Assembly (NCBI GenBank): GCA_902565645.1
Contig: CACFFJ010000004.1
Coordinates: forward strand, 195 to 64,194
Reading direction: 5' to 3'
DNA: 64,000 bases
Origin: an uncultured Candidatus Actinomarina sp.
GTDB lineage: Bacteria > Actinomycetota > Acidimicrobiia > Actinomarinales > Actinomarinaceae
The notes beneath the pieces were generated by a model. It was not told the origin of the DNA. It worked only from the letters and a program-made list of their open reading frames with translations, and ran no database searches. Positions within the stretch are counted from its first letter, which is position 1; the number at the start of each line of letters is the position of its first letter. Shown here piece after piece: positions 18,869 to 62,322 of the stretch. The position numbers and the translations under genes were made by a program.

Positions 18869-19893
18869 ACTATAGCATCGACTATTTTATCTAGATCTTC
18901 TTGATTTACATCTTTATGAATAACCAGCCTAACAATATTTTTCCTTATAAATCCTGATCTAATATTTTGATCTTCAAGTTTTTTAATAAAATTACTGGAA
19001 ACGGTCATGTCTTCAAATGAAAGGAAAATCATATTAGTATCTTTATAACTAATGGTTTCGATTAAATTTAGTTCTTCTTCTCTTTCTTTAAGTTTTTGAT
19101 AGATAAATTTTGTATTTTCATGATCTTTCAAAATATGCTCCCTGTTCTCTATTGCATATCTTGCAGCTGAAGCAATAACCCCAGCCTGTCTCATTCCGCC
19201 ACCTAGTTTTTTTCGATATTCTCTTGAATCTTCAATAAATTCATGACTTCCTAATAAAATTGATCCTACAGGTGCACCAAGAGCTTTGGAAAAGCAGAAT
19301 GTTAGACTATCCGTATAACTACCGTAATCATAGCCTTTATCTTCTACTAGTATTGCATGCCAAACTCTAGCACCATCTATATGTAGATTCATATCATTTT
19401 CTTTAGCAATATCAGATATAGATTTAATATTTTCGTATGGAACAATGCTCCCTCCTGAAGCTAAGTGAGTATTCTCAATAACAACCGTAGAAACTTTAGG
19501 TTTGTGGATCTTAGAAGCTTCAATAATTTGAGTTAAATCTTCATTACTAATTGATCCATCTGTGTTTTTAACATCTCTAAATTGTATTCTCGATAAAAAA
19601 GAAGCAGCTCCATGTTCATAGTTCTTTATATGTGAATCAGAAGTTGTAACAACTTCTTCACCAGGGTTAGTGTGGTTAAGTAAAGCTATTTGATTACCCA
19701 TTGTTCCAGAAGTAACAAAAAGACCTGATTCAAAACCTAATAGTTTTGCACAATACTCTTCTAATTCATTTACTGTAGGATCTTCTCTATATTCATCGTC
19801 ACCAAGTTGTGCAGATAAAATACTTTCTAGCATGTCTTTAGTTGGTTTAGTTACAGTATCAGAACGTAAGTCAATCATATTCAATTTTATCAT
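18850..19893 (-). CDS. ltaE: Low-specificity L-threonine aldolase
   Basis: IDLRSDTVTKPT N-terminus and PLP-dependent aldolase fold. The start may be the second Met at 19878. Confidence 0.85.
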   Translation of the reverse strand: MIKLNMIDLRSDTVTKPTKDMLESILSAQLGDDEYREDPTVNELEEYCAKLLGFESGLFVTSGTMGNQIALLNHTNPGEEVVTTSDSHIKNYEHGAASFLSRIQFRDVKNTDGSISNEDLTQIIEASKIHKPKVSTVVIENTHLASGGSIVPYENIKSISDIAKENDMNLHIDGARVWHAILVEDKGYDYGSYTDSLTFCFSKALGAPVGSILLGSHEFIEDSREYRKKLGGGMRQAGVIASAARYAIENREHILKDHENTKFIYQKLKEREEELNLIETISYKDTNMIFLSFEDMTVSSNFIKKLEDQNIRSGFIRKNIVRLVIHKDVNQEDLDKIVDAIVHSSSS

Positions 19894-20581
19894 CTAATAT
19901 ATTTTGTATTTGGTTATAAAACTGATCTAAGCTTGAATCTTTCAAAATATAAATTAATTCAATATTTGAATCAAAATTTTTAAAGTAATTATTTTCACCA
20001 ATGTGTATACATTGACTTAAGTTACCTATTGGATTTTTAATTTTTTTATATATTTCTGATTTAATTTCTAGATTCATTTTTGAAATCCCCCATTGATTTA
20101 TTCCTAATGAATATTTTCTAATTAGATTGAGTTTAGATTTTGAATTTCCACCAAGAAATAGATTGTTCCCATCAATAGAAAAAGTATTGCTTTTTAATAA
20201 TTTTTTAATTACTTCATCTATTTCATTTTGATAATTTACTTTCATTTCTTCAAATTTATTATCACCTGTTCCAAGTCCTAATTTGAAATTCTTTATTTCA
20301 AGAAAGGGATCTAAGTAGTCATAAAATAATTTTTCTGAATTTCTTTTATTTATATTAAAAATTAAAGTACCAATATTAAATAAACGATCTTTATAATTTT
20401 CTAACTCAAATACTGATTTTTTTATTTCATACATATCATCTTTTTTATTTAATGGATTTAAAGTATGGTCAAATAAATATAATGTGTGTATTTCTTTTTG
20501 ATTTAAATATTGTATTTTTCTTTTTGATTCTATATTAAAAAAAGAGCCTGGTAGTAAAACAGATTTAATTTGATTACTCAT
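19871..20581 (-). CDS. Hypothetical protein (weak luciferase-like/LLM resemblance)
   Basis: 236 aa, translationally coupled on both sides. The only motif seen is LGLGTGDNKFE, which resembles LGVGTGENINE in the LLM oxidoreductase at 35042. Confidence 0.35.
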   Translation of the reverse strand: MSNQIKSVLLPGSFFNIESKRKIQYLNQKEIHTLYLFDHTLNPLNKKDDMYEIKKSVFELENYKDRLFNIGTLIFNINKRNSEKLFYDYLDPFLEIKNFKLGLGTGDNKFEEMKVNYQNEIDEVIKKLLKSNTFSIDGNNLFLGGNSKSKLNLIRKYSLGINQWGISKMNLEIKSEIYKKIKNPIGNLSQCIHIGENNYFKNFDSNIELIYILKDSSLDQFYNQIQNILDDKIEYD

Positions 20582-21482
20582 TTAATGCTAAAATTGCAGC
20601 TCCTAGAACTCCAGAATCTGATTTGAAATTGCTAATCTCTATTAAAGGAAATCTTCTTGCTTCAAACTTATAATTATCTTCTATATATTCATTAAGTAAA
20701 CTTTTGAGGTCATATGGATTGTCAGCCATAGCTCCACCTAATAGAAAGATATCGTTATTAAATATTTCAAAAATTGAAACCAAACCTCTGCTTAAATAAA
20801 ATAGTAAATTTTCTCTTACTTCTAATTCTTTAGGAGTTAATTTAATAGATTTGTCAAAAATTATTGACCCAATACCTAATTTATCATAAGCTTTTGACAA
20901 TTCAGTACTCTTATCTATTATATTTAGCTCATTACATTTTTCTGTCCACACTCTTGCTGAGACTATAGATTCTAAACAACCTGTTTTTCCACAATTACAT
21001 ATATTATTTTGATTATCAGATACTAAAATGTGACCTATCTCTCCAGCACTACCAGCTCCTCTGTAAAGTTTTCCTTCTAATATAATCCCTCCACCAATAC
21101 CTGTCCCAAAAGTAAGCATTATTAAATTGTTATATTCATTTTTATATTTTTGAATATATTCAGCATAAGCTGCTACATTTCCGTCATTATCTAAATAAAA
21201 ATTGTCTGAATTAAAATTTATTATTTTTTTGAAATCTATTTCAAATTTAATGTTTGTTCCATAAAGAAACTTATTTTCATTTTTATTAATAAATCCTGGC
21301 ATAGCAATAGATATTTTTTCATAATCATCTTTGTAAGACTCAATTATCTCATTTATAGCATTCAAAAACTCGATTTCATTATTGGGTGTATCTAGGATGC
21401 CTTTCTTAACAATTTCTAAGCTACTTGATACAATCCCATATTTCATGGACGTACCTCCAACATCAAATGCTAAAACATTCAT
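20574..21482 (-). CDS. ROK family sugar kinase (glucokinase-like)
   Basis: AFDVGGTSMKYG ATPase N-terminus and ROK zinc motif CNCGKTGCLES. Confidence 0.85.
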   Translation of the reverse strand: MNVLAFDVGGTSMKYGIVSSSLEIVKKGILDTPNNEIEFLNAINEIIESYKDDYEKISIAMPGFINKNENKFLYGTNIKFEIDFKKIINFNSDNFYLDNDGNVAAYAEYIQKYKNEYNNLIMLTFGTGIGGGIILEGKLYRGAGSAGEIGHILVSDNQNNICNCGKTGCLESIVSARVWTEKCNELNIIDKSTELSKAYDKLGIGSIIFDKSIKLTPKELEVRENLLFYLSRGLVSIFEIFNNDIFLLGGAMADNPYDLKSLLNEYIEDNYKFEARRFPLIEISNFKSDSGVLGAAILALNE

Positions 21483-22248
21483 ATATCTAATGATGATAAT
21501 TCCAAATAATTGCTACTAGCTCTAAAATATCCCACATTTAAACAGATTGTTTCTCCAATCCTCCATTCAGTAGCTCTTGGTTGATGAACATCACCAAATA
21601 ATGAAAATTTTGGTTGTTTATTAATAATGTATTCCCTAAGGCTTTGCCACCCTTGTTCCTTCTTGTTTGTAATTACATCAGTAATTAACTCATCAATCAA
21701 GGGTGGAGCGTGGGTGCATATGATGTCAACATTATCTATATTGTTTAATTTTATATAAAAATCTTCCTCCGATATCTCACCTCTTGCGTTTATAGGTGTT
21801 GGTACACCACCTCCTGCAAAACCAATTTTCTTATTGTTATGATCTAGAACAAGCCCATCTACATTTTCAACATTTTTTGTTTTTGTTGATTCAAGAATAG
21901 ATAGTGAGTCGACATTACCGGGTATTACCCATACTTGATAATTTTTTAATATTTCAAAAACCTCTACATATTGTTTAAGAATAAGATCTTCTATTTTCTT
22001 CTTTTTTCCTTCAGGATCATCCGAAAATAATTCATTCCACAAATTTTTTCTTTCTTTAAAATTATGATTTTTTCTAAGTTCTATTAATTTATTAATTTTT
22101 TCATCTCCAAAAACTTCCTTAGCTATTCCATCTCCATTTCTATAATCAATCCAATTTATTAAATCGCCTAATATCACTAACGGTTCGTTAGTTTCTGGTA
22201 ATTTTTTAATGAGTCTATACCGTGATGAATGTCTGATATGAATAACAT
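21479..22248 (-). pseudogene. Metallophosphoesterase interrupted by a 1-nt frame change in an A6 tract
   Basis: The frame from ATG 22248 gives MLFISDIHHGIDSLKN (DxH motif) and stops at 22179..22177. The tracked ORF from GTG 22177, read upstream in its own frame, gives LIKKLPETNEPLVILGDL (GD motif). The span is 770 nt, not a multiple of 3. Confidence 0.75.
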
Positions 22249-22259
22249 TTATATTTTAA

Positions 22260-23636
22260 CTAGCCCGTTACAGCTCCTCTATCAGCTCCTGTAACTAATT
22301 TCGAATACTTGTTTAGTACCCCTGATTTATATCTAGGTTCTGGATATTTATAATTTTTAAGTCGATTTTCAATTTCTGATTTTTCTATATTCAGATTTAA
22401 TTCTCTATTTTTAAGGTTCAAAGAAATTTCATCCCCATTTTCACAAATTCCAATTGGTCCTTTATCGATGCTTTCAGGAGTAACATGTCCAATGCATAAT
22501 CCGGTTGTGCCTCCTGAGAACCTTCCGTCTGTTATAAGCAATACATCCTTTCCTAAGCCGGCTCCTTTCATTGCGGCTGTAATTTGTAGCATCTCTCTCA
22601 TACCAGGTCCTCCTTTTGGTCCTTCGTTTCTGATAACTACAACGTCTCCTTTATTAATTTTTTGATTATATAAAGCTTCTAAAGCTTCCTGTTCACTTTC
22701 AAAAACATTTGCAGGCCCTGTAAATGTATCAATTTCTATACCTGCAACTTTTACAACTGATCCATTTGGAGATAAAGAACCTTTTAGTATTGCAAGACCC
22801 CCTTCCTCTGAGATAGGGTTATCAGGAAAGTAAATCACATCTTGATTTTTTGGGATTTCAATATCCTCTAGATTATCTCCAACAGTCTTCCCGGTTACAG
22901 TCATGCAATTTGGTTCTAATAAATTATTTTCTAAAAGAATTTTAGAGACTACAGGGACTCCACCAATTTTATCTAAATCAACCATATGATATTTACCAAA
23001 AGGTTTCATATCTCCTAAATGTGGCACATTTCTTGCTAATTTATCAAATACATCAATGTTTAAATCTACTTTTGCTTCGTGTGCAATAGCTAGCAAATGA
23101 AGTACAGCATTAGTACTACCTCCTAATGCTAAAACTGTACTAATTGCATTATAAAAAGCTTCAATTGTCATGATATCCCTAGGTTTTATATCATTTTGTA
23201 ACAAGAAATTTAACTGCTCACCCGTTTCTCTAGCTGCATCCCTTAATCTTTTATCTTCAGCTTGTATAGAAGCAGTGCCCGGCAAACTCATACCTATTGC
23301 CTCTCCCACTGAAGCCATAGTGTTTGCTGTAAACATTCCAGCACATGAGCCTTGTCCTGGACAGGCTGCACACTCAATTTCATACAACTCTTCTTCGGTA
23401 ATTAACCCTTTATCAAAAGCTCCTATTCCTTCAAATACATCAACTATAGATATATCTTTACCTTGATACTGGCCTGGTAAACTACTCCCTCCATACAGGA
23501 ATATAGAAGGTCGGTTTATTCTTGCAGAAGCCATTAACATGCCGGGTAATGACTTATCACATCCCGCTATTGTCACCATTCCATCAAACCTTTCAGCATG
23601 CATAACAAGCTCTACTGAATCAGAGAAAATATTCCA
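22260..23636 (-). pseudogene. ilvD: Dihydroxy-acid dehydratase, 5'-truncated (about 110-120 N-terminal codons missing)
   Basis: Sequence from ...[30 protein letters not shown] to the C-terminus is typical IlvD. There is an in-frame TAA at 23637..23639 and no upstream continuation. First ATG at 23603. Confidence 0.85.
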
Positions 23637-23963
23637 TTAAAAATAGTTGTTTTCAACAATGGAAACCATGGAATGGTAAGGCAATGGCAAAAAATATTTT
23701 ATAATCACAGATTCTCAGCATCAGAATTATCTCACCATACACCTGATTATGTAGCACTCGCTGAAGCAATGGGTGCCGTTGGATTAAGAATGGTTGAAAA
23801 ATCAGATGTAAATAGAGTTTTCGAAGAAATGTTTAAAATTGACGACAGACCTGTCTTGGTTGATTGTGTAGTCGATCCTGATGATATGGTATTCCCAATG
23901 GTTCCGGCGGGAGGTAGCAACGATGTAGTACTTTTAAATAAGGATGACTTAAAAAAATTATGA
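23619..23963 (+). pseudogene. ilvB: Acetolactate synthase large subunit, C-terminal ~110-codon remnant
   Basis: [24 protein letters not shown]...PDYVALAEAMGAVGLR...PMVPAGGSN is the end of the ThDP-binding domain. There is an in-frame TGA at 23616..23618. About 450-500 N-terminal codons are absent. Confidence 0.85.
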
Positions 23964-24433
23964 GTGAAAGAATATTGAGTATATTAGTTGAAGATAAGCC
24001 TGGTGTTTTAGCCAGAGTAGCATCAACAATATCTAGAAGGGGCTTCAACATAAATTCGCTTGCAGTAGGTCCGACAAATGTTGAAGGTAGGTCAAAAATG
24101 ACAATTGTTACAGAGCTTGAATCTGTTGAGCAAGTAAAGAAACAGTTAAATAAATTAGTAAATGTCATTAAAATAGTTGAACTTGATCCTGAAAATACAA
24201 TTGAATCAGAAGTATTGCTAATAAAGGTATCCATAAACAAAGAAACACAAACTTCTGTTATTGAAAAAGCTAATCTGTCAGGAGCTAAATCAGTTGACGT
24301 AGGTCAAGATTATGCAGTATTTGAGCTAACAGGAACCTCAAAAGAGCTAATTAAATTTGAAAAATTATTAAAACCATACGGAATTATTGAAATGATAAGA
24401 ACTGGAAGAATTGCCATCCAGACAAAACTTTAG
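23960..24433 (+). CDS. ilvN: Acetolactate synthase small (regulatory) subunit
   Basis: ACT domain [35 protein letters not shown]. Confidence 0.92.
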
Positions 24434-24441
24434 GAGGATTA

Positions 24442-25458
24442 GTGGAAAGTAAAATAATTTACGATAAAGATATAAATCAAGAATTAATTAAGTCTAAAAA
24501 AGTAGCAATAATTGGTTTTGGTAGCCAAGGACATGCACATGCGCTAAATCTTCATGAATCTGGAGTAGACGTAGTTGTAGGTCTTAGGGAGTCATCTGAA
24601 TCATATAAAAGAGCATCCGATATGGGATTGAAAGTAGCAAACTTAAAAGACGCAACTTCAAGTTCAGATGTTGTTATGCTGTTGTTGCCTGATCAACTAA
24701 TGGCTGACATATATAATAATGACATTGCTCCTCACATGAAAGATGGGGCAACGCTTCTTTTTGCTCACGGTTTTAATATTCATTTTGGAGAGATAATACC
24801 CAGAGAAGACATATCAGTAGCAATGATAGCCCCTAAAGGTCCAGGTCACTTATTAAGAAGGACTTATAAAGAAGAATCTGGTATGCCATGTTTAGTTGCG
24901 GTTGAAACAGATGTGAATGGTAAAACATTTGACCTTGCACTTTCTTATGCGTCAGGTATCGGAGGTGGCAGAGCAGGTGTGCTAAAAACTACTTTTAAAG
25001 AAGAAACCGAAACAGACTTATTTGGTGAACAAGTTGTATTATGTGGAGGTCTTACAGAGCTAATTAGAAATGGATTTGAAACTTTAGTAGAAGCTGGTTA
25101 TCAACCAGAAAGTGCTTATTTTGAAACTTTACATGAAGTAAAACTTATAGTTGACCTAATGTATGAAGGCGGGTTTGAATGGATGAGACATTCAATATCA
25201 GATACAGCTGAATATGGAGATTTTTCAAGAGGTTCAAGAATAATAACTGAAGAAACTAAAAAAGAAATGAAAAAGGTACTTGAAGAAATACAATCTGGAG
25301 CATTTGCTAAAGAATGGATGGCACAAGCAAGAGAAGGAGCACCATTTCTTAATGAGAAAAGAGAAGAAGCATCAAAACATCAACTTGAAAATATTGGAAA
25401 AGAGTTAAGAGGAATGATGCCTTTTCTGGATGCAAAGGATGTTAGAAAAGACATATGA
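24442..25458 (+). CDS. ilvC: Ketol-acid reductoisomerase (class I)
   Basis: [15 protein letters not shown] Rossmann motif. GTG start preceded by AGGAGG. Confidence 0.96.
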
Positions 25459-26945
25459 GTTCAGATCAATTAATAATTTTTGATACAACCTTGAGGGATG
25501 GTGAACAAAGTCCAGGTATAGCTCTTACTCCATCTGAAAAACTTTTAATAGCTCAACAATTGGAAAAATTAAAAGTAGATGTAATTGAAGCTGGTTTTGC
25601 TGCATCGTCTCCCGGAGACTGGGAAGGAGTTAATCTAATTGCTAAAAATGTTAAAAATTCAACAATAGCTTCATTAGCAAGATGTGTAGCAGATGATATA
25701 GACCAATCATGGGAAGCAATTAAAATTGCAAATAAATCTAGGATACATGTATTTACTTCAACTTCTGATATACATATGGAACATATGCTTAGAAAAAGCA
25801 AAGAAGAAGTCCTTAAAGACGCTAGAGAATCTGTAAAATATGCAAAAAAACTTTGTGAAGATATAGAATTTTCTGCACAAGATGCAACAAGGACAGATAA
25901 GGATTTCTTAATAGAAATATTAAAAGCAGCTGTTGAGGAAGGGGCTACAACAATAAACGTACCTGATACAGTTGGTTATGCTACCCCATCAGATTATTTA
26001 GAGCTCTTAAAAGGTGTCTATGACGAAGTTAAAGGTAAAAATGATGATATTATCATATCTACACATTGTCATAATGATCTTGGATTGGCAGTCGCTAACT
26101 CTTTAACTGCAATTACAGCTGGCGCTAGACAGATAGAAGGTGCTATAAACGGTATTGGGGAAAGAGCTGGCAATACCTCTACTGAAGAAATAATAATGGC
26201 AGTAAAGACAAGGCAGGACCAATATGGAGTAGATATTAAAGCTGAAACTACTGAAATTTTAGAAACTTCAAGACTTGTTTCAAAATTAACAGGATATCCG
26301 GTTCAATTCAATAAGGCAGTTGTCGGAAAAAATGCATTTAGCCATGAATCAGGTATACATCAACACGGTTACCTGCGTAACAAAATGACTTATGAGATTA
26401 TGACCCCAGATTCAGTAGGGCAAGAAGCAAAAATAATATTAGGGAAACATTCAGGAAGAGCTGGCTTTAAAGACGCATTAGATAAATTAAATATTGAACT
26501 AGATGAAGAATCATTTAATTCAAGTTTTGAAACATTCAAAAAGCTTGCAGATAGAAAAGGTGAAATTGTAGAAAATGAGCTACGAGCAATTGTAGGTCAA
26601 GTTCCTTCTCAATCAGGTTCAGTTAAATTAGTTTCTGTATCAGTTAACAGTAAGGATGATTTTGCATCTGCAAGTGTAACCTTAAATGTACAAGGTGAAG
26701 AGCAAACTGAAAGTGCTGAAGGTGATGGAATGATTGACGCTGCATTTACTGCAGTTAAGAAAATCTTGAAGTCAAAAGCAAAATTAATTGACTATAAGGT
26801 CGACAGTATCACCAAGGGTTCAGATTCAACAGCAGAAATAGTAACCATTGTTAATGACGGTCATAATTTAAAACAAGGAAGAGCAGTATCAACTGATGTT
26901 GTACAAGGTTCAGTAGAATCTTTCTTAAATGCTCTTAATAAGTAG
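25455..26945 (+). CDS. leuA: 2-isopropylmalate synthase
   Basis: [14 protein letters not shown] and [13 protein letters not shown] motifs, plus a C-terminal LeuA dimerisation/regulatory domain. Confidence 0.95.
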
Positions 26946-26947
26946 AA

Positions 26948-28015
26948 ATGAATAAATATAATATATCCCTCCTGCCAGGAGACGGTACAGGGCCTGAAGT
27001 AGTTAACGAAGCAGTAAAAATTCTAAATAAGACACAATCTAAATATAATGTTGAATTTAACTTTATTAAAAATGATCTAGGTGGAGATAGATATTTAAAA
27101 TCAAACGAACTTGTAACAACTAAAGACCTCGAAGATCTTGGAAATAGTGATGCAATATTACTTGGAGCAATAGGTCATCCTGATGTAAAGCCAGGAATAT
27201 TAGAGCAAGGAATATTGCTTTATCTAAGAAAAGAATTTGATCAATATATAAATTTAAGGCCTGTAATTTTATATCCTGGAATTGAAACTCCCCTAGCTGG
27301 AAAAACTCCAGAAGATATAAATTTCACTGTTGTCAGAGAAAATACTGAAGGTCTTTATGCAGGCGCAGGAGGTTATATTCATTATGGAACAGAAAATGAA
27401 GTTGCAACACAAGAATCTATTAACACATGGAAAGCCATAAATAGATGCATAATTTATGCATTTGAATATGCAAAAGCAAATAAAAGAAAGAAAGTAACTT
27501 TATGCGCTAAAACTAATGTTTTGACTTATGCCCATGATTTGTGGGAAAGAATATTTTACCAAGTGGCTGAAAATTATCCTGATATAGAAACTGACTACGG
27601 ACACGTAGATGCTGTTTGTATGTGGATGGTTAAAAATCCAGAATGGTTTGATGTAATAGTTACAGATAACATGTTTGGTGACATAATCACAGATCTAGGA
27701 GCAATGATTCAAGGTGGTATGGGTATTGCTGCAGGAGGAAACATAAATCCAGAAGGTGTTTCAATGTTTGAACCTATAGGAGGGTCAGCGCCTAAATATA
27801 CAGATAAAAATGTTATAAACCCTCTAGCTTGTATTGCAGCGACATCAATGATGCTTAAAGAATTAGGTGAGGATAAATATGCTAAAGACATTGAAGAAGG
27901 GATAATTCAAACAGCTCAAAAATTAGAATCACTTTCAGCTGGTAAAATGGGCATGAGCACTTCTGATGTAGGTGATGAAGTAGTTAAATCATTATTAGAT
28001 AAAAATAATGAATAA
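26948..28015 (+). CDS. leuB: 3-isopropylmalate dehydrogenase
   Basis: [12 protein letters not shown]-terminus and [10 protein letters not shown] signature. Confidence 0.95.
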
Positions 28016-28610
28016 TGAAGAAACTTATCTTCATGGATTATTAAAAAAAAGAAAAGTAGTTAGAAATTATATTCAAACAAATAAAAAATATCCAAATCTC
28101 AAAAAGGTTGCTGATTATGCAATTAAAATACCGACAGCAGGATTTGCAAGAGGTATAGAAATAATAAATGTTTCTAGTAAAGAAAATATAGAAAAACTTG
28201 CTAAATTGTCAAATGAAGAATCCTATGTTGAAAAAGGATTTGATAAGTGGATATCTAATTCATTATCGATTTTTGTAATATTGGTAAATGAAAATGCATA
28301 CCATGAAAGGTATGCGCAAATGGATAAAGAAAGTGTTACAAATTCATCTAATTGGGATATCCCCTATTGGTATGTTGATGCTGGAGCTGCAATGATGAAC
28401 TGTATGTTATTGATTGAAGAAATGAATTTAAAAAGTGGATTTATGGGATCTCATAATATGAAAATTGATGGAATAAAATCACTATTACAAATTGAAGAAA
28501 GTTATAAAATATTAGGCTTCGTTACTGCTGGAGTAGAAGGAAACGTTAATACTAAAAAAAAAGACACAACGAAAAAAAAGTTAACTCACGATGAGTATTT
28601 TAAAAAATAA
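28008..28610 (+). CDS. Nitroreductase-superfamily protein
   Basis: LLKKRKVVRNY N-terminus and overall size typical of the FMN nitroreductase fold. Weak assignment. Confidence 0.5.
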   Translation: MNNEETYLHGLLKKRKVVRNYIQTNKKYPNLKKVADYAIKIPTAGFARGIEIINVSSKENIEKLAKLSNEESYVEKGFDKWISNSLSIFVILVNENAYHERYAQMDKESVTNSSNWDIPYWYVDAGAAMMNCMLLIEEMNLKSGFMGSHNMKIDGIKSLLQIEESYKILGFVTAGVEGNVNTKKKDTTKKKLTHDEYFKK

Positions 28611-29094
28611 AAATCTGTGTATTCTTGATATTGAAACAACAGGATTTGAACCTGAAAATTCAGAAATTATTGAGATCTTTATTTTAAAAGTATCAAATAG
28701 TGAAATAATTGATGAATTCTATTCTTTATTTAAGCCTAAAGATCAAATTAATAACTCAGAAATTCATGGCATAACAGATTTGAAAGTAAAGAATGCACCT
28801 TTATTTAAAGATAAAAATGACGAGATAGTTGATTTTATAGGAGATAGTGTAATTATTGGTCATAACTTAGAAAACTTCGATCTACAGTTTTTAAATCATT
28901 ATTTAAATACTGAATTAAAAAATGAATTTATTGATACTTTACATTTAAGTAGGTCTGTATTGGGGAATAAAGTAGCTAATCATAAATTAAACACGTTAGC
29001 TATATATTTTGATGTAAATCCACCAACACATAGTGCAAGGGATGATGTTATGACAACTTTTGAGATTTATAAAAAACTATTATCAATACAATAG
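28591..29094 (+). CDS. DnaQ-like 3'-5' exonuclease (DEDDh)
   Basis: Exo I ILDIETTG, Exo II GHNLENFDLQFL and Exo III HSARDDVMTT motifs. Confidence 0.85.
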   Translation: MSILKNKNLCILDIETTGFEPENSEIIEIFILKVSNSEIIDEFYSLFKPKDQINNSEIHGITDLKVKNAPLFKDKNDEIVDFIGDSVIIGHNLENFDLQFLNHYLNTELKNEFIDTLHLSRSVLGNKVANHKLNTLAIYFDVNPPTHSARDDVMTTFEIYKKLLSIQ

Positions 29095-29098
29095 TCTT

Positions 29099-29695
29099 GT
29101 GAGTAATATTTTTTTTCAAACAGATAGCCTAACTTTAGGATATGGAAATGAAATAGTAATTAATAAACTCAAGTTAAGTCTTGATAAGACAAAGAACTAT
29201 GAAATTACTGGAAAAAATGGTGCTGGAAAAACAACCCTTTTGAACTTTATTTCTAATAACTTTGATGGAAACTCATTTAATTCTAAATACACAAAAGAAG
29301 AATTAGATATCTTAGAGATATCACACACACCTACCCTTTTGCCTAACCTAACACTTAGTGAAAATGCTATTTACTTTACAAGTTCTAAAAATATTGATGC
29401 TGAAATAATTGAATCTGCAATCGAAAAATATGACTTAGGAAGTTACAAAACAGATGAGTTGAAAAATTTTTCTAGTGGAATGATAAAAAGAGCTGAGTTA
29501 GCTATAGCGGAAATGAAAGAACCTCATATTTTATGTATAGATGAACCTCTGAATTATTTGGACAAACAAGGTATTAATCATTTAAAGACACTAATTAATG
29601 AAAGAGCTCAGAACTCTAAAAGTAACATACTATCTTCTCAAGAAACTAGCGGATTACTCAAAAACAAAGAAACGATAAATTTAGATGAAATTTAA
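29099..29695 (+). CDS. ccmA: Heme exporter ATP-binding protein CcmA-like
   Basis: Walker A GKNGAGKTT, signature FSSGMIKR and Walker B ILCIDEP. I placed the start at in-frame GTG 29099, just after the upstream stop. The tracked start is 29060. Confidence 0.75.
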   Translation: MSNIFFQTDSLTLGYGNEIVINKLKLSLDKTKNYEITGKNGAGKTTLLNFISNNFDGNSFNSKYTKEELDILEISHTPTLLPNLTLSENAIYFTSSKNIDAEIIESAIEKYDLGSYKTDELKNFSSGMIKRAELAIAEMKEPHILCIDEPLNYLDKQGINHLKTLINERAQNSKSNILSSQETSGLLKNKETINLDEI

Positions 29696-30326
29696 TAAAT
29701 CTCTAATAAAAAAAGAAACAATAAGTGAGTATAGAAATAATTCTTCCTTATTCTTAATAACTCCAACAATGTGCGTGCTTATTATAGTTTTTCCAATACT
29801 TGCAGAAAATAGGTTCGCAATAGACGAAGACTTATTCATTATTATTCAAATTCTCTTTTTGATACTTTTTTCTACTCTATTTTCTATTAGAAACCCAATA
29901 AATCAAAAGAGCCTTACGAAGGAACTTAACTTTGCTTATATTAAAAAATCTGAATATTTTATTAGCAAAATAACTTCAGAATTCTTAATTTATTTTCCAC
30001 AAATTTTACTTTTCAGTATCTTGTTTTCTGTTTTTACTAATTCAAGTGTTAAAACTAATATCTTTACTTTTATATTAACTTTGATCTTTTTCTCAATTAA
30101 TACGGTTATGGTAAATATAATTTTTCAAATGTTTACCTCATTTAATAATAGGTTTGTTCAATTCATTCTAATTGTTCCAATATACATGGCTTTATCATTT
30201 TTCATCGCACCTATCTGGTTAGGGATAAATCTTCATCTGACTAATATTTACTTACTGATGTATTTAGGAATAACAATAGTTATTTATTCATACACAAGTT
30301 TTTACTTAGAAAGAGGTAAATTATGA
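29685..30326 (+). CDS. ccmB: Putative heme exporter membrane protein CcmB
   Basis: 213 aa with about 6 TM segments. Called mainly from its position between ccmA and ccmC with translational coupling. Confidence 0.55.
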   Translation: MKFNKSLIKKETISEYRNNSSLFLITPTMCVLIIVFPILAENRFAIDEDLFIIIQILFLILFSTLFSIRNPINQKSLTKELNFAYIKKSEYFISKITSEFLIYFPQILLFSILFSVFTNSSVKTNIFTFILTLIFFSINTVMVNIIFQMFTSFNNRFVQFILIVPIYMALSFFIAPIWLGINLHLTNIYLLMYLGITIVIYSYTSFYLERGKL

Positions 30327-30991
30327 TGCTTTATGGACCTTTAGTAGTGTGGATAGCTATTGCAGCTTTAGGGCCATATGATGTTACACAGGGTCAGTAT
30401 TCAAAACTGCTTTATGTTCATGTTCCTACTGTGTGGATAGCTTATTTAGCCTACACATTAACATTTATATATTCTCTTCTTTACTTAATTAAAAGAAATC
30501 CAAAATATGATTCCTTAGCATTAGCAAACGCAAAATCAGGAGTAATATTTACTGCATCAACTTTGGTTGCGGGTTCTGTATGGGGAAAATTTACATGGGG
30601 AACATGGTGGGTCTGGGGAGATGCAAGGCTTAACCTAACAGCTATTCTCCTTTTAGTTTATCTTGGATATTTAGCTTCTAGAAATTTTAATAATGATCTA
30701 GAAAAGACCGCTAAAAACTCTTCATTTATTGGAATATTCGGAGTAATACAACTACCCATACTTCATTTCAGTGTAATTTGGTGGAGATCAGTTCACCAAC
30801 AAGCATCTATATTGAGTCAAGAAACAGTAGCTAGTGGTGATGCACCTATGTCATCAGATATTTTAACTACCCTTTTAATAAGCGTTCTTTTAGTTACTTT
30901 AGTTCATATATTTCTTTCAAAAAGATTTAGAGCGAGTGCTGACAAATTATGGAATGATTATTTAAATCCACAAATCAGGACTAAAATTTAA
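30323..30991 (+). CDS. ccmC: Heme exporter/heme-handling protein CcmC
   Basis: WWD-type motif WGKFTWGTWWVWGDARLN and about 6 TM segments. Confidence 0.88.
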   Translation: MMLYGPLVVWIAIAALGPYDVTQGQYSKLLYVHVPTVWIAYLAYTLTFIYSLLYLIKRNPKYDSLALANAKSGVIFTASTLVAGSVWGKFTWGTWWVWGDARLNLTAILLLVYLGYLASRNFNNDLEKTAKNSSFIGIFGVIQLPILHFSVIWWRSVHQQASILSQETVASGDAPMSSDILTTLLISVLLVTLVHIFLSKRFRASADKLWNDYLNPQIRTKI

Positions 30992-30996
30992 ATTAC

Positions 30997-31404
30997 GTGA
31001 ATAAAAACCTAATTCTTGTCCTCGTGGGCATTGCTTTAGTTATATATGCAAGTGTCCAAATTGCCTCAAATAATACTATATATTATTACACGACTTCTGA
31101 AGCTACTTCAGCCCTTGACGTAGATAACTCAGAAAGAATAAAACTTGGAGGCTTTGTTCAAAATGATTCCATTGAAAATAAAGGGAACGGAGTAACAAGT
31201 TTTTTCATTACTGATGGAAACGAAAAGATTGAAATTATCTTTGATGGTTTTGTTCCAGAATTGTTTCAAGAAGAAATGGGTGTCATTCTTGATGGATTTT
31301 TTAAAGATGGTGTTTTTTATTCTGATGATATGCTTGTTAAGCATGACAATGAATATGTTTCAGAAAATGGAGAGACCTACAATGTAAAAACTAATTCAAA
31401 ATGA
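30997..31404 (+). CDS. ccmE: Cytochrome c-type biogenesis heme chaperone CcmE
   Basis: N-terminal TM anchor, OB-fold region (IKLGGFV) and heme-binding H-x-x-x-Y (VKHDNEY). GTG start. Confidence 0.88.
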   Translation: MNKNLILVLVGIALVIYASVQIASNNTIYYYTTSEATSALDVDNSERIKLGGFVQNDSIENKGNGVTSFFITDGNEKIEIIFDGFVPELFQEEMGVILDGFFKDGVFYSDDMLVKHDNEYVSENGETYNVKTNSK

Positions 31405-33287
31405 TATCAAATATAGGCATAATTGTTACGTGGATAAGTTTTGTAAACTTAATTTTTTTATTATTTTCAAAGTCGAATTTGCAAATACATAAGTTAGTTA
31501 GATTAAATCTATTTATTCATTTTATTTTGTTTTGTTTATTAGAAATTGGACTTTTTATAGACGATTTTTCAATTAGTTATATTGCAAATTATTCAGCATC
31601 TACTACCCCACCAATTTATAAATTTGCTTCGCTATGGGGATCTTTAGATGGCTCTATACTTCTTTGGAATTTTGTTCTTAGTATTTATTTCTTGGTATAT
31701 ATTAAATATTTTCACAAAAAAGAATTACTTGTTGGTATCAAAATTTTTTCATCGATTTTAATTTTCTTTGTGGGATATACAATATTCAGCTCTTCACCAT
31801 TTGCTGGATGTATAGAGCTTTCAAGCATCGGTTGTGCTAACTCTTCACTTTTACCATTTGAAAACTTATTATCATCTGAATACGGAAGGGGGCCAAATCC
31901 TTTACTTCAAAATCATCCTTTAATGGCAATCCATCCTCCAATTTTATACGCTGGCTATATAGGTTTGGTAATGCCATTTGTAATATCAACAAGTCACTTG
32001 ATTATGAAAAAAAATAATAATGAATGGGTAGAAATGGCTGAGAAAGCTACATTTTTTCCATGGATTTTTCTAACCGCTGGTATTTCACTAGGTGCTGCTT
32101 GGTCATATGAAGTTTTAGGTTGGGGTGGATATTGGGCATGGGATCCAGTTGAAAATGTCTCATTTATTCCTTGGCTTCTAGCAACAGCTTTTCTTCATTC
32201 TGCTAAAACACAAATTAGAGAATCTACATTAATAAATTGGAACTACTCCTTATCTTGTTTGATGTTTCTATCAACTATATTTGGTACTTTTATTACTAGA
32301 TCTGGTGTTCTTATTTCTGTACATGCCTTTTCAAATGGAAATATTGGAACATATTTATTAATCGGATTATCAATTTTTACAGCTTTTTACTTATTAGTGG
32401 GTTCAAAAAATACACAATATTTTTTAACAGCAAAAAAATTAAATAACTGGTTTGGAAGATCAGGATTTTTCATCGCCAATAATATAGTCCTTTTTTCAGC
32501 AACAATCGTAGTTTTTGTGGGTACAGTGTATCCAATTTTTTATGAAACTTTATATGATAGACAATTAACTATAGGTAGGAGTTTTTATGATACTTTAGTT
32601 GGACCCTTGCTACTTATTCTTCTTTTATTAATTGTATTTTCAGAAAAACTACCTAACAAAAACTTAAATTTATCTGAGTGGATTAAAGGTAATCAGAAAG
32701 AAATTAACATTTCACTAGTTATTTCAATTGCAATGTCTTTATATTATGAAGCAAGTTATAAATTTATTTTTACTATATTTGCATCAACAGTCTTGGTAAT
32801 TATCTTAAGTAAAAATTTATTATCTTATATAAAAAAAGGAAAAATATCTGGTTCTTACTGGTCAGGACAAATTGCACATATTGGCATTGGTATATTCGCA
32901 ATTGGTTTAATTTTGAATGTAACTCAAAGTTACTCTAAAGAAGTTATCACGAGTCCAGGATCAACTATAGAATTTGGTGGCAAAAACTATTCAATAAATC
33001 AACCATACAAAGAATCAAAAGATGAAAAGGATGTTATAAATTTACCAATTGCAAAAAATAATAAAATTAAAAATGCTTCATTAAACATATTTAAGAACTC
33101 AAGCCAACAAGCTATTAGTAGCCCAGCAATATTTAGAAATATTGAAAGTGATACTTATGTAACTATCAAAGTTATTGATGAAGAGTATTTTAAATTAATA
33201 ATAAGAAAGAACTATGGGATATTCATTATCTGGCTTGGTTTGGCAATGACTACTTTTTCAATTTATCCAAGGATTAGAAATGAATAA
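31401..33287 (+). CDS. ccmF: Cytochrome c heme lyase subunit CcmF
   Basis: 628 aa polytopic protein with WWD motif WGGYWAWDPVEN. Confidence 0.92.
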   Translation: MISNIGIIVTWISFVNLIFLLFSKSNLQIHKLVRLNLFIHFILFCLLEIGLFIDDFSISYIANYSASTTPPIYKFASLWGSLDGSILLWNFVLSIYFLVYIKYFHKKELLVGIKIFSSILIFFVGYTIFSSSPFAGCIELSSIGCANSSLLPFENLLSSEYGRGPNPLLQNHPLMAIHPPILYAGYIGLVMPFVISTSHLIMKKNNNEWVEMAEKATFFPWIFLTAGISLGAAWSYEVLGWGGYWAWDPVENVSFIPWLLATAFLHSAKTQIRESTLINWNYSLSCLMFLSTIFGTFITRSGVLISVHAFSNGNIGTYLLIGLSIFTAFYLLVGSKNTQYFLTAKKLNNWFGRSGFFIANNIVLFSATIVVFVGTVYPIFYETLYDRQLTIGRSFYDTLVGPLLLILLLLIVFSEKLPNKNLNLSEWIKGNQKEINISLVISIAMSLYYEASYKFIFTIFASTVLVIILSKNLLSYIKKGKISGSYWSGQIAHIGIGIFAIGLILNVTQSYSKEVITSPGSTIEFGGKNYSINQPYKESKDEKDVINLPIAKNNKIKNASLNIFKNSSQQAISSPAIFRNIESDTYVTIKVIDEEYFKLIIRKNYGIFIIWLGLAMTTFSIYPRIRNE

Positions 33288-45516: not shown

Positions 45517-46482
45517 ATGGTGAATAAAAAAATTGTGCTTAATGTTTGTGGTGTAAAGTCTTTAGGTGGTCTAAAGCTTTTCCTAGAATCATTTGACTTC
45601 TTTGTAGATTCAGGAAGTGAAATAACTGTCCTATATTCAGAATTACCATTTTATAAAGATTTACAAAACCAGTTTCTAGATAGTGGATTGGTTAATTTTA
45701 AATACATTAATAAAAAAAGGTTCTTACATCCATATTTAAACTTATTCCTAAGTAGAGAAGTAAAAGAAAAAATTAACTCCTCTGACGCAATTATTCATTA
45801 TGGAAACTTTGGGTTTAAGACAAAAATAAAATCTTTCATATTGATACAAAATGTGTTGCCTTTAGTTAAGAAGGATTTAAGAAATATTATTTTGCGTTAT
45901 TTTATATTAAGAAGTACTAATTTATCAGATTATATACTTATACAATTAACTCATTTAAAAGACTATCTACCTTCTAATGATCAAAAAAAGATTATTGAAA
46001 TTGGAGAAATCATTGAAAAATCGGTTCCACTATCAAATTCAAATAAAGGTATCGTTTGTTTTGCTAGTGATATACCAAATAAGAACTTTGAATTTATTCT
46101 TAAAGTACTAAAAAAAATCAATAGCCCTGAATTAGTAACAATTATTAACCCTAAAGAAAAAATTAAAGATTTTAAATGCGTAACTACTACAAATAACGAA
46201 GAGACTATGGAGGTACTATCTCAAAATGAAATTTATTTCCATGCTAGTGAATTTGAAACTGTTGGATTGCCGCTATACGAAGCCCAAGATTTAGGGCTAA
46301 AAGTTGTTGCTCCAAATAATCCTTATACACAATATTTTGATAAAGATAGTACATTTCTATACAAAAGTAATGATGCTTTAGATGCTGTTCAAACAATAGA
46401 ACTTGCTAGTTCAACTAAAACAAAAAATATCCAGGCTTTAGATTACTCAGAAAATTGGGGTAAAGTCCTAAGTAAGATCTAG
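45517..46482 (+). CDS. Putative glycosyltransferase (GT-B fold)
   Basis: C-terminal SEFETVGLPLYEAQDLGLKVVAP (E-x7-E-like). Weak N-terminal similarity. Confidence 0.5.
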   Translation: MVNKKIVLNVCGVKSLGGLKLFLESFDFFVDSGSEITVLYSELPFYKDLQNQFLDSGLVNFKYINKKRFLHPYLNLFLSREVKEKINSSDAIIHYGNFGFKTKIKSFILIQNVLPLVKKDLRNIILRYFILRSTNLSDYILIQLTHLKDYLPSNDQKKIIEIGEIIEKSVPLSNSNKGIVCFASDIPNKNFEFILKVLKKINSPELVTIINPKEKIKDFKCVTTTNNEETMEVLSQNEIYFHASEFETVGLPLYEAQDLGLKVVAPNNPYTQYFDKDSTFLYKSNDALDAVQTIELASSTKTKNIQALDYSENWGKVLSKI

Positions 46483-47709
46483 AATTTTAATTACTGAAGA
46501 AGCTGTGTAATTCTCTATAAACAACTCCTTATTAAAAGAATCTATATTCTTAAAATATTTTTTTAAATTCAAGAAAAACTCTTCTATATTCTCTTCCTTT
46601 GTAAGGATAAACAAATTATCAAAATTTTCAGCAATCAAATTCACTGGGTCATTTGCGACTTCAGCAAAGTGAATTACTGGCTTACCAGTTGATAAATATT
46701 CGATTACTTTACTTGGTAACTGATTAGTATTCATATTCCCAATTGAAATAAGACAGTGTACAGAATCAGCCATTAAATGTATAGCTTCTTCCCTGGGGAC
46801 AATACTTTTAAAGTGACTATTCGAAATCATTAAATTACTAGATTCTATTTGTTCTCTTGAATCATCATTAACATACCAAAATAGCTCAAGATCACCTATA
46901 TCTTTTATAGACTCTAAAAAATTGCTCGGTGATCTTACACCTTTTGTAAATATTCCAAAATAGCCAAACTTGATAGGTTTTGAGAAATAATCATAATTTA
47001 ATGACTTGTTAAATATTTGATTATCAAATTTACTTATTGGGTTTGCTACAAATATTTTTGAAGAATCAATTTTAAAATATTCTTTATGAAAATCTAAAGA
47101 TTCTTTATGTGTAAATAAAATCTTGCTTGCTATTGAATAAAATTTATTTTCATAATATTTATTTAAAAACCCATACAAATATTTATTATTTTCTGGAGCA
47201 TCTTTTTTTAAAGTAAATGGATCACCAATATCCATAATCCACTCTTTTTTCTTTTTTTTGTTAATAATGTAACCAGCTATATGGGAAGAGAAAGGAAGGC
47301 TTACAGTTATCATGATGTCATAATCTATATTTAATTTTTTTTTGTTTTTAATTATTGATAAAAGCCAGAACATCGAATAGTCAGGCCAGGAAAAGGTTTT
47401 TACTATAAATCTGTAAATTCTTTTAAGAGATCTATAGTAAATTTTTTTCAATTTAGAAGTATCTACTAGATTATTTGATTTATCTCTTAAATTATTAACT
47501 AAATTATTTGAACTTTTATTCCCTACATAAATAATATTGTTATCTTGGTTCAAATCATTTTGTTGCGTTCCTGTAACGATCTTCACTTCGTGCCCTAAAC
47601 TTAGTAATTCATTAACTATAGACTCCCACCTTGTTGTTCTAGGACTCAAATGAGGCGTGTATTGATGAGTGACAATTAGTATCTTTTTTGTTTTATTCAT
47701 GAGTTTCAT
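46468..47709 (-). CDS. Glycosyltransferase, family 4-like
   Basis: GT-B N-terminus ILIVTHQYTPHLSPRTTRWESIVNELLSLGHEV. Contains an A8 coding homopolymer (47252..47259). Confidence 0.6.
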   Translation of the reverse strand: MKLMNKTKKILIVTHQYTPHLSPRTTRWESIVNELLSLGHEVKIVTGTQQNDLNQDNNIIYVGNKSSNNLVNNLRDKSNNLVDTSKLKKIYYRSLKRIYRFIVKTFSWPDYSMFWLLSIIKNKKKLNIDYDIMITVSLPFSSHIAGYIINKKKKKEWIMDIGDPFTLKKDAPENNKYLYGFLNKYYENKFYSIASKILFTHKESLDFHKEYFKIDSSKIFVANPISKFDNQIFNKSLNYDYFSKPIKFGYFGIFTKGVRSPSNFLESIKDIGDLELFWYVNDDSREQIESSNLMISNSHFKSIVPREEAIHLMADSVHCLISIGNMNTNQLPSKVIEYLSTGKPVIHFAEVANDPVNLIAENFDNLFILTKEENIEEFFLNLKKYFKNIDSFNKELFIENYTASSVIKILDLT

Positions 47710-49075
47710 TTATAGTAATTAAGCCTATAGATAAAGCTAAAGCCAAATTTAATTCTTCTGCTTGGAAAAAATAAATTAATAAAATTATAAAAAATTGAGC
47801 AAATAAATATATATCTAAATCATTAAACCTTTTAATTAATTTAACGGTTATGTCGAAAAGAATCTTCAAAAACCAAATAAGACCGACTAAACCTGATGAT
47901 AAATACAAATTAGCATACAAGTTATTAAATGATACAATTTGACCAGGATTTCTATAAATTATCTGACCTTCTTTTTCAAGTTTTGATATTTCATCAAACT
48001 CATAAGAATAATTAATATTTGAAGCACCTAAACCATCCCCTAATATTTTTATATTCTGGGAAGATAAGTACTCTCTTAAAAATCCTATATTTTCAAATGC
48101 GCCTAATCCGCCAGAAGTAATACGTGTTAACCTACCAAATATACTCTTAGTAACACTTTCCGAATTTTTTGCTTCATCTAATTTATCTTCATAAATAGAA
48201 CAATTACATTTATCAGGTGATTCTGGAGGGCACATGGAGGGGTCTAAAGCTGGAAATTTATAAGCAATATTGTTACTAAAAATACTTGCTAACAAAATAA
48301 ATACTATTGGAATCAACAAACTTAAATTTAATGATTTCTTTTTTACAATCCAAATTAATGAGATAATTGAAAATGTTGCTAGAAGACTTATAACTCCTGT
48401 CAAGCTTCTAGTTAAAACAATTGAAATTATCGGAATTAATGAAAGTAGATACCAAAATCTTCTTTTTTTAGCCAAATAAAAAAATAATGGAATTAAAGGT
48501 GCAGACCAAGCTGCAAGAAAGCTTGGCTCTCTAAAAGTACCATAATTTCTTAATACTGAACAAGCTCTTTTTATTGGTTGTGTCCACCCTCCAGAACCAG
48601 CTCTTGTCCTTGTAAAATCAGGTAATTCGAATATATAAGAAAAATACGAATAAAGAGAAAAAATAGAGATTGCAAGACCTGCATAAGCTATATATTTAAT
48701 AATTTTATCTTTATCGAAATACTTGCTAAATAAATGTATGAGCCAAATTGCAGTAATAAATGTTAGGAGTTTAACTAATCGTAATGAAATATATTCAAAG
48801 AAAGTAGTAGTTGCGTATTCAGGTAATGATCTATTAAATGAAAAAGCCCTTACTAAAGTAACAATCGTTAAATAAAACAGCCAAATCCTTAACGAAGGAA
48901 GTTCATCGAATTCAAAATCAGAACCAAAATAATAATTTACAATATATAGACCAATTATTAAAACTGCACCTATCCAGGGAACTGGTATTGAATAAATTGA
49001 AAAAGCATCTAATCCTTCTAGGAAAATTCCTAAAACAAATAAATAGAATATTGGATTCATATTCTTTAACTTCAA
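47693..49075 (-). CDS. O-antigen polymerase/ligase-like (Wzy-type) polytopic membrane protein
   Basis: 460 aa with about 10-12 TM segments and one large Cys-containing external loop. Context is a glycan locus. Confidence 0.5.
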   Translation of the reverse strand: MKLKNMNPIFYLFVLGIFLEGLDAFSIYSIPVPWIGAVLIIGLYIVNYYFGSDFEFDELPSLRIWLFYLTIVTLVRAFSFNRSLPEYATTTFFEYISLRLVKLLTFITAIWLIHLFSKYFDKDKIIKYIAYAGLAISIFSLYSYFSYIFELPDFTRTRAGSGGWTQPIKRACSVLRNYGTFREPSFLAAWSAPLIPLFFYLAKKRRFWYLLSLIPIISIVLTRSLTGVISLLATFSIISLIWIVKKKSLNLSLLIPIVFILLASIFSNNIAYKFPALDPSMCPPESPDKCNCSIYEDKLDEAKNSESVTKSIFGRLTRITSGGLGAFENIGFLREYLSSQNIKILGDGLGASNINYSYEFDEISKLEKEGQIIYRNPGQIVSFNNLYANLYLSSGLVGLIWFLKILFDITVKLIKRFNDLDIYLFAQFFIILLIYFFQAEELNLALALSIGLITINETHE

Positions 49076-50691: not shown

Positions 50692-51895
50692 ACGATTTCT
50701 TAAAACTATATGTAGTCAAAATAGCAATCAAAACCTGAGAGAAAATAATTGAAAGAACAGCTGGGTTGTAACCTATTTCATGCATTAAGAAGTAAATCAA
50801 GTATGAAAATATTGCACCAATTGAAATAGTTTTAGTTATATTTAATTCAAAATTTAAAGCTCTTGAATAAATTATATTAATTCTAGACCAAATCATTAGC
50901 GGTAAGCAGAATAAAATGGATGAGGTTATATTTGCAAGTTCATTAAATTCATTGCCTAAAATGTTAGTAAAAATACCTTGTGCAACATCTTTAAATAAAT
51001 AAAACAAAATAGGAATTGAGAAAGAAAAAATAAATACTTTTCTAAGCCTTACTCTTAATTCTGAGACCTCATTTTTGTTTTTTGCTTTTGAAAGCTGGGG
51101 AAATATCATGTCTAAACTTGCTCCAACAAATTGAAAAAGAGCTTCCAGTAATCTTCTTGATAATGCTAAAACACCCAACACAGGTCCAGAATAAAACAAA
51201 CCTAGTAAAACAATGTCAAGTTCGGATATAAGAACAGCTGAAAATGTTGTTGTTACCATTTTCTTTCCTGATTTAGTCAACTCAGATCTAGTCTCTTTAT
51301 TATTTTCTGAATCATAATTTAATTCAGTTTTAGGTATATAAAAATGTGCAACTAGAAAAAAGATAAAGAATATTAAGGTTTGAAAAATAATTACCCATAG
51401 TATTGAAAAGCCATTAAATACAATAAACCATGCACCTATTCCATAAAATAATGTACGAATTAGTATTTGTTTTGAACTTATTACAAAGTTCCCTTTAGCT
51501 TGATAATAAGCTAAAGCAATATGAATCATTTCATTAAAGATATAGCCAACTAAAAATATTGATGTCCACAAATAGTTTCTTCCTAATAGATATGAAATTG
51601 GAAAAAGTAAAACTAATGAAAATATTAAATTACGAAGTACTAAGAAATATGAATTGGAAAATACTGATTTTGAATAATCTAAATTTTGAGCTCTAACTTT
51701 TGTAGTGACTAAAGCTAAAGACAACACAGATGCTGTACCAATTAGAACTGATAAACTTTTTGAGGATGCATACTCACCATATATTGCTGCTCCGTACTCT
51801 CTACTTATTATTGTTATGAGAAAAAAATTAACGACTAATAGGGTAATTTGCATTAAAGAAATATAAACAGTATTTTCTTTCCAATTTCTTATCAA
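50684..51895 (-). CDS. wzx: Wzx-type oligosaccharide flippase (MOP superfamily)
   Basis: 403 aa with about 12 TM segments, in a glycan locus. Confidence 0.6.
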   Translation of the reverse strand: MIRNWKENTVYISLMQITLLVVNFFLITIISREYGAAIYGEYASSKSLSVLIGTASVLSLALVTTKVRAQNLDYSKSVFSNSYFLVLRNLIFSLVLLFPISYLLGRNYLWTSIFLVGYIFNEMIHIALAYYQAKGNFVISSKQILIRTLFYGIGAWFIVFNGFSILWVIIFQTLIFFIFFLVAHFYIPKTELNYDSENNKETRSELTKSGKKMVTTTFSAVLISELDIVLLGLFYSGPVLGVLALSRRLLEALFQFVGASLDMIFPQLSKAKNKNEVSELRVRLRKVFIFSFSIPILFYLFKDVAQGIFTNILGNEFNELANITSSILFCLPLMIWSRINIIYSRALNFELNITKTISIGAIFSYLIYFLMHEIGYNPAVLSIIFSQVLIAILTTYSFKKSYA

Positions 51896-53733: not shown

Positions 53734-53801
53734 TTATCTAACTCTAATGTTATATTTTTTATTCAAGTACATTAATTTGAATAGTTTAGAGTAAATAATG
53801 T

Positions 53802-59024: not shown

Positions 59025-59067
59025 ACTATTTCATAGTATATGTTTGAATAACCTATTTAAGGTGTAT

Positions 59068-60261: not shown

Positions 60262-60357
60262 AATTCCCCATTAAATAAGATATTACCTTTTTAAGGTATA
60301 TAAATACTATTTAAATCTTTTTAAAGAATTCTCTAATACTTTGTTAGCATATTATCT

Positions 60358-61341: not shown

Positions 61342-61348
61342 GAAAAAA

Positions 61349-62302: not shown

Positions 62303-62322
62303 TTAACATATAGAATTTAACT

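Follow-up and report, generated by a model that had tools for sequence, protein, structure and literature searches.

One deletion-type junction truncates ilvD and ilvB in a Candidatus Actinomarina contig whose conspecific relatives carry the intact locus

Spontaneous microhomology-mediated deletions (RecA-independent, slippage-type) leave collinear flanks and one copy of a short repeat, with no filler DNA. The real pseudogenised pathways of streamlined bacteria usually show, in addition, shared inheritance and further erosion. In direct chimeras of multiple displacement amplification (MDA), segments of the same strand, usually <10 kb apart, are connected through a short overlap (PMC9984789). 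Here we describe a junction that truncates both ilvD (dihydroxy-acid dehydratase) and ilvB (acetolactate synthase large subunit) in a 64,000-nucleotide (nt) stretch of an uncultured Candidatus Actinomarina contig (CACFFJ010000004.1, assembly GCA_902565645.1), referred to as the window. It resembles spontaneous deletions in its collinear flanks, its single retained repeat copy, the lack of filler and the two gene remnants, and is unlike them in having neither population support nor secondary decay. With the MDA direct chimeras of single-cell assemblies it shares a same-strand join skipping <10 kb, a short overlap and restriction to one library, as well as a small indel elsewhere in the contig at about published error rates. 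It is unlike them in that its overlap is 3 nt (8/9 with one gap) against a typical 5-8 nt. Both surviving readings, a deletion flanked by microhomology and a chimera of amplification or assembly, are events of a well-known kind, and neither involves a new system.

The comparison rests on contigs of the same species. The exact IlvN protein of the window was found in 352 blocks of the assembly collection; 22 contigs were read and 10 places are shown, from differing ENA, JGI and NCBI samples. One of these, contig L081, served as the intact reference for coordinates. By blastn, positions 14-33 kb of the window aligned with the ten loci as two collinear blocks at 99.0-99.6 % identity, except for one short 1.2-kb segment of L082 (98.4 %). 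The left block ends at window position 23626 (L081 4735) and the alignment resumes inside ilvB. The absent block, L081 4736-7667, is a contiguous 2,932 bp comprising ilvD codons 1-99 (297 nt), a 14-nt spacer, a queG-like gene (1,116 nt), a 131-nt intergenic region and ilvB codons 1-458 (1,374 nt). Since the two flanks align collinearly and in one orientation to the same conspecific contigs, with one block absent between them, both truncations stem, judging by these alignments, from one deletion-type junction. The junction and what is left of the two genes are as follows (ORF, open reading frame; aa, amino acids).

22260..23624, minus strand: ilvD remnant, codons 100-553 and stop of dihydroxy-acid dehydratase
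22260-23603, minus strand: longest ilvD ORF having a start codon, 447 aa
23624..23626, no strand: deletion junction, 3-nt microhomology AGA, one copy kept
23625..23963, plus strand: ilvB remnant, codons 459-570 and stop of the acetolactate synthase large subunit
23673-23963, plus strand: longest ilvB ORF having a start codon, 96 aa

The trinucleotide AGA is present at both breakpoints of the intact relatives (L081 4733-4735 and 7665-7667). In all ten, the left breakpoint reads ...GAATCAGAGA and continues with TAACCTC (in short form ...ATCAGAGA, then TAACC), and the right breakpoint reads ...GCATCAGTAGA and continues with AAATATT (in short form ...ATCAGTAGA, then AAATA). Across the join, the window reads ...GAATCAGAGAAAATATT (in short form ...ATCAGAGAAAATA), within the surrounding sequence ...GCATGCATAACAAGCTCTACTGAATCAGAGAAAATATTCCATTAAAAATAG... 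The microhomology extends to an imperfect repeat, ATCAG(T)AGA, matching at 8/9 positions with one gap, and the join contains no filler DNA. The window thus displays the sequence features of a microhomology-mediated deletion: collinear flanks in the same orientation, one block gone, one repeat copy kept and no inserted bases. No relocated copy of the absent block, and no second ilvB, ilvD or queG, was found by tblastn and search of the window.

Profile searches located the missing parts of each protein. The minus-strand frame at 22260-23636 matched PF00920 from profile position 65/316 (E 3.7e-98), NF002068 from position 100/559 (E 1.6e-201) and PF24877 (E 9.9e-70); homology to dihydroxy-acid dehydratases (IlvD/Edd) is therefore significant, with an incomplete N-terminal domain. 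The plus-strand frame at 23619-23963, whose stop at 23963 overlaps the ilvN start codon, matched only positions 69-151/151 of PF02775 (TPP_enzyme_C) and 453-554/557 of TIGR00118. TPP_enzyme_N and TPP_enzyme_M are wholly gone from it, together with half of TPP_enzyme_C, while the 570-aa IlvB of relatives carries all three domains. As judged by these scores, the truncated IlvD and IlvB are strong homology matches and not chance. When intact conspecific proteins were aligned to the window by tblastn, IlvD 98-553 and IlvB 459-570 were recovered; codon counting at the junction places the start of secure retention at IlvD S100 and IlvB E459, so that 99 and 458 residues, respectively, are missing. 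With the intact IlvD of L081 (553 aa), the IlvD remnant shares 99.3 % identity. Residues 1-99 of the relatives' IlvD carry the TPCN cysteine and the SDGISMGHEGM motif, which we take to have catalytic roles, and both are gone from the window remnant.

These results sharpen an earlier note on the same DNA. Its two stop codons are in the sequence as described: the IlvD frame is open back to a TAA (TTA on the plus strand) at 23637-23639, and the IlvB frame is open after a TGA at 23616-23618. Truncation of both genes at their 5' ends by one junction was also borne out, with profile searches, tblastn and blastn in agreement, and the IlvB remnant does cover roughly the last 110 residues (459-570), the precise loss being 458 N-terminal residues. 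Other figures needed correction: IlvD lost 99 residues instead of 110-120, the block lost relative to conspecific contigs is 2,932 bp instead of ~2 kb, and the ilvD and ilvB homology blocks, thought to meet within about 20 nt, do so within 3 nt (23624-23626).

The closest relatives of the window are Candidatus Actinomarina or Actinomarinales genomes, and its DNA is low in GC (about 20-40 % per 400-nt window across 20-28 kb). The syntenic locus was compared in sister genomes, as the note had proposed, and was intact in 10/10 of the conspecific contigs shown, with an ilvD product of 553 aa, a Fer4_16 protein of 367-371 aa and an IlvB of 570 aa. The order is ilvD preceded by the queG-like gene on one strand, then the leader/attenuator region and ilvB-ilvN-ilvC-leuA-leuB on the other. 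Three genus-level loci were intact as well. In L001 and L037 (IlvD identity about 82 %), ilvB (570-586 aa), ilvN and ilvC run in one direction, and a 361-365-aa 4Fe-4S protein gene, ilvD (553 aa) and a 256-aa metallophosphoesterase-like gene run in the other. Because these conspecific contigs all carry it, the species, on this comparison, is one that possesses the complete locus. As a side observation, a single amplified genome, GCA_902551335.1, is a 95.9 % identical relative; the best match in genome_contigs, through SepF, FtsZ and IleRS, is 89 % identical and belongs to another species.

In intact genomes ilvD is the second gene of the queG-like unit and not a direct divergent neighbour of ilvB. 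The control region shared by ilvD and ilvB that the note had envisaged does not exist in this form, since the queG-like gene lies between them and was deleted too. Two elements are thus missing in addition to the gene ends.

L081 5045-6160: queG-like 4Fe-4S gene, between ilvD and ilvB in all Actinomarina relatives and in one unit with ilvD; wholly deleted in the window
L081 6179-6291: leader ORF, hairpin and GGGAGG-T9 terminator, directly upstream of ilvB; absent from the window

The queG-like gene encodes 371 aa with a Fer4_16 domain. Its match to TIGR00276 spans profile positions 26-336/337 (E 1.6e-52), and the 178.6 bits are under the curated cut-off of 200; we therefore use the name queG-like and not QueG. 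A HEAT-repeat match was weak and sub-threshold (E 0.0067).

The second element can be compared with the leader attenuators of actinobacterial ilvBNC and of enterobacterial ilvGMEDA and ilvBN. Among the 131 nt ahead of ilvB in intact relatives is an ORF of 16 codons (MKKINILITLLVLVLM*), ten of which specify Ile, Leu or Val. On its 3' side come a GCGCTC...GAGCGC hairpin and then a CCTCCCC-AAATT-GGGAGG stem with a T9 tail, ending about 12 nt ahead of the ilvB ATG. Leader ORF and terminator are kept in L001 (MKKSVNLISLLVLVLM) and L037 (MKKLYVLITLLVLVLM). A short Ile/Leu/Val-rich ORF, an intrinsic terminator, a position ahead of the first structural gene and conservation are therefore all found in relatives, and the GC-rich hairpin and T9 terminator are further likenesses to the known attenuators. 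Unlike those, the Actinomarina element matched no family in an Rfam scan of the intact intergenic region, and its single minimum-free-energy fold, consisting of the upstream hairpin and the terminator, had a z-score of only -1.18. In its anatomy the lost element corresponds to a classical branched-chain amino-acid leader-peptide attenuator, and we regard it as a putative one. The loss of the native ilvB leader, also proposed earlier, was borne out: relatives have this leader ORF and terminator, and the window retains nothing of them. Near the junction, a promoter scan gave no convincing replacement promoter for ilvN-ilvC-leuA-leuB; sigma-70-like sites were fewer there than in shuffles (2 versus a mean of 5.9).

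The genes downstream of the junction survive.

23960..24433, plus strand: ilvN, acetolactate synthase small subunit, intact; protein identical to that of many conspecific contigs
24442..28015, plus strand: ilvC, leuA and leuB, intact and tightly coupled; native leader/attenuator and promoter region gone

The integrity of these four genes, another point of the note, was confirmed, and ilvC, leuA and leuB carry no private stops or frameshifts relative to conspecific contigs. Comparison with nine of these shows 26 substitutions private to the window over 13.5 kb, evenly distributed and creating no stop codons; nonsynonymous to synonymous counts are 7:4 on the left side of the junction and 7:8 on its right. 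On these private changes a relaxed-selection test gave no signal in the ilvD and ilvB remnants or in ilvN, ilvC, leuA and leuB. If the deletion is biological, the absence of extra decay in remnants and orphaned genes suggests that it would be extremely recent, only generations old. At 18,893-32,433 the window carries 25 singleton alleles against 1-13 in each of nine conspecific metagenome contigs. At 27-47 kb it carries 24 against 18-52, no excess. The excess in the ilv region would be compatible with a single-cell or strain-resolved genotype and is not decisive.

We then looked for the junction elsewhere. A junction 30-mer (CTACTGAATCAGAGAAAATATTCCATTAAA) gave 0 matches in genome_contigs (species-representative genomes) and metagenome_contigs (JGI metagenomes), a scan of low power. 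Only one contig, the 64,222-bp NCBI contig from which the window comes, is on record with the truncated 447-aa product. Exact look-ups of the 447-aa and 96-aa products returned no other contig, a weak result as both carry private amino-acid changes, and no clone-mate sharing the private IlvC of the window is on record. Two further 96-aa proteins of the 90 % cluster that holds the window's remnant were considered as independent deletions and rejected as contig-end gene calls: the short ENA metagenome contigs L104 and L105 begin 24 and 80 nt upstream of these calls, in adaptor sequence. The adaptor stretches (L104 1-24 and L105 1-49) are of Nextera or TruSeq type and yield spurious 96-aa 'IlvB' calls.

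One further lesion lies close to the junction.

21479..22248, minus strand: metallophosphoesterase-like gene, directly downstream of ilvD, with a private 1-nt homopolymer deletion

At 22202-22207 the window has A6 on the coding strand where most relatives have A7 and one strain T-A6; no relative has a frameshift. The deletion shifts the frame at codon 16 of the 256-aa gene and cuts off the N-terminal SDIHHG motif, leaving a 232-aa ORF with a GTG start. Either an indel from sequencing or assembly or a second real lesion of this operon could account for it. A distance of 1.4 kb separates the two private lesions, which belong to one transcription unit; the other sequence that could be compared, about 38 kb between 9.5 and 47.6 kb, contains none. 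Window positions 27,201-47,620 are gap-free against five conspecific contigs (99.4-99.7 %), and at 9.5-18.9 kb gaps are limited to compensating alignment shifts and one intergenic A-run.

How the junction arose was weighed against these data. The pair of alternatives put forward by the note, recent loss or bad join, was the right one, except that two of their forms drop out. A mis-join of two organisms, or of two distant regions of a genome, could be suspected from the gene strand and GC-skew sign, which both flip at the junction: the cumulative skew has a local minimum exactly there (~23,400-23,800), where genes on the minus strand (1.5-23.6 kb) give way to genes on the plus strand (23.6-36.7 kb). 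This flip follows the divergent gene orientation, and because intact relatives share that arrangement it is no sign of a mis-join. In addition, the two flanks match one and the same set of ten contigs at 99.0-99.6 %, with order and orientation preserved and 2,932 bp between them, which excludes an inter-organism chimera and makes this origin highly improbable in general. Even less credit can be given to the idea that the 447-aa and 96-aa products are functional short members of their families, or that the lineage has lost the pathway by streamlining. Actinomarinales genomes are indeed highly streamlined, with several amino-acid auxotrophies (PMC7771536). Against this, the IlvD N-terminal domain lacks 64/316 positions, the synthase lacks TPP_enzyme_N, TPP_enzyme_M and half of TPP_enzyme_C, the conspecific and genus-level proteins measure 553 aa and 570-586 aa, and the other 96-aa cluster members are contig-end calls beside adaptors. 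Profiles and relatives' lengths together rule out that the two products are full-length family members. As to the lineage, the ten conspecific and three genus-level loci are intact, and the window's own ilvN, ilvC, leuA and leuB are complete, without an excess of private changes; the intact conspecifics exclude a loss of branched-chain amino-acid synthesis at the level of the lineage.

Between the two remaining origins, we lean towards the junction being an in-vitro direct chimera or a misassembly, since 10/10 conspecific contigs are intact, the junction is private and without decay, the join is chimera-like and published error rates would allow for it. A polymerase end would have switched template between two short similar sites 2.9 kb apart, probably during whole-genome amplification or library preparation, and the assembler would then have followed the chimeric molecules. 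In the organism itself the queG-ilvD / ilvBNC-leuAB locus would be intact, as it is in all relatives, and a second assembly error would explain the nearby 1-nt homopolymer frameshift. The join has the anatomy of an MDA direct chimera (same strand, 2.9 kb, overlap of 3 nt exact or 8/9 imperfect). Public Actinomarinales genomes are mostly single amplified genomes; the 182 genomes of one study were largely of this type, with 7 metagenome-assembled genomes (PMC7771536). A widely used marine single-cell workflow produces 1.5 misassemblies and 3 indels per 100 kb (PMC6122165), from which about 0.6 misassemblies and 1.1 indels are expected in ~38 kb; one of each was observed. Several points weigh against an in-vitro origin. 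Should the source be an unamplified short-read metagenome assembly, a junction with 3-nt homology must sit in many reads and would more likely be real. At 3 nt, the exact overlap falls short of the 5-8 nt that amplification chimeras typically have. A real decaying operon would likewise produce two private lesions in one transcription unit at a distance of 1.4 kb. Finally, the wild-type boundary 30-mer used as a control gave 1 match in metagenome_contigs, which shows how low the power of the junction scan was. That the sequenced cell or strain itself very recently lost the 2,932 bp in vivo, by replication slippage or illegitimate recombination at AGA, is a serious possibility, although we stop short of calling it probable. 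Microhomology-flanked deletions are a standard class of spontaneous mutation, which counts in its favour, as does the clean run of the contig through the junction, with no other gaps against conspecifics in about 38 kb. The other private lesion of the operon could be a further hit, suffered once the operon was silenced, and the top singleton count in the ilv region (25 versus 1-13) fits one genotype and not a consensus. Such a variant could survive, given the existing auxotrophies of Actinomarinales for Arg, His and Trp and their several branched-chain amino-acid transporters (PMC7771536). Yet the deletion is seen in one assembly only while the conspecific contigs examined are all intact, the now useless ilvN, ilvC and remnants bear no sign of relaxed selection, and the prior for catching such a cell is far below the published single-cell misassembly rate (PMC6122165).

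If the deletion did happen in vivo, acetolactate synthase (IlvB), dihydroxy-acid dehydratase (IlvD) and the queG-like gene would be lost, and ilvN-ilvC-leuA-leuB left with neither leader nor promoter. Such a cell would have to obtain Ile, Leu, Val and a pantothenate precursor from outside, relying on amino-acid uptake. We can only tentatively, and with rather more doubt than belief, picture a natural Candidatus Actinomarina cell or strain caught just after a 2.9-kb microhomology deletion and before secondary decay of the orphaned ilvN-ilvC-leuA-leuB. It would offer a snapshot of reductive evolution in one of the smallest free-living genomes, with Ile/Leu/Val synthesis and a putative epoxyqueuosine reductase gene gone, and a small datable case in which one microhomology deletion removes two pathway steps and a neighbour gene, by a mechanism that is not new. 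The finding is ordinary and quite possibly artefactual, and it chiefly calls for caution: annotation at face value would describe a branched-chain amino-acid auxotroph without the queG-like gene, and wrong auxotrophy calls of this kind would enter metabolic reconstructions of a very abundant uncultured marine lineage. A useful by-product is the conserved, putative Ile/Leu/Val leader-peptide attenuator upstream of Actinomarina ilvB, which has no Rfam match.

Private deletions were also observed in the relatives. L082 (GCA_001628925.1, LUML01000027.1) has deletions of 34 and 62 nt at window-equivalent positions 20333-20366 and 24834-24895, and L091 (LULN01002381.1) has one of 101 nt at 22798-22898. 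The 34-, 62- and 101-nt deletions lie inside a 236-aa gene, ilvC and ilvD, respectively, with no evident direct repeat at the breakpoints, and look like assembly or gap-closure artefacts; private deletions are therefore not rare in assemblies of this population. An apparent loss of the UDP-glucose dehydrogenase gene together with an MMPL truncation in L097 (ENA scaffold BPAM22-1...scaffold_254) was rejected, as it corresponds to scaffolding gaps of 200 N.

At the far end of the window, ~46,400-64,000 carries genes for a glycosyltransferase, an O-antigen-polymerase-like protein, an asparagine-synthase-like protein and sugar epimerases/dehydratases. One exact-protein look-up, for the 322-aa protein at 56745-57713, returned no identical protein. 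This run of genes probably corresponds to the 'glycotype' flexible genomic island of Actinomarinales (PMC7771536).

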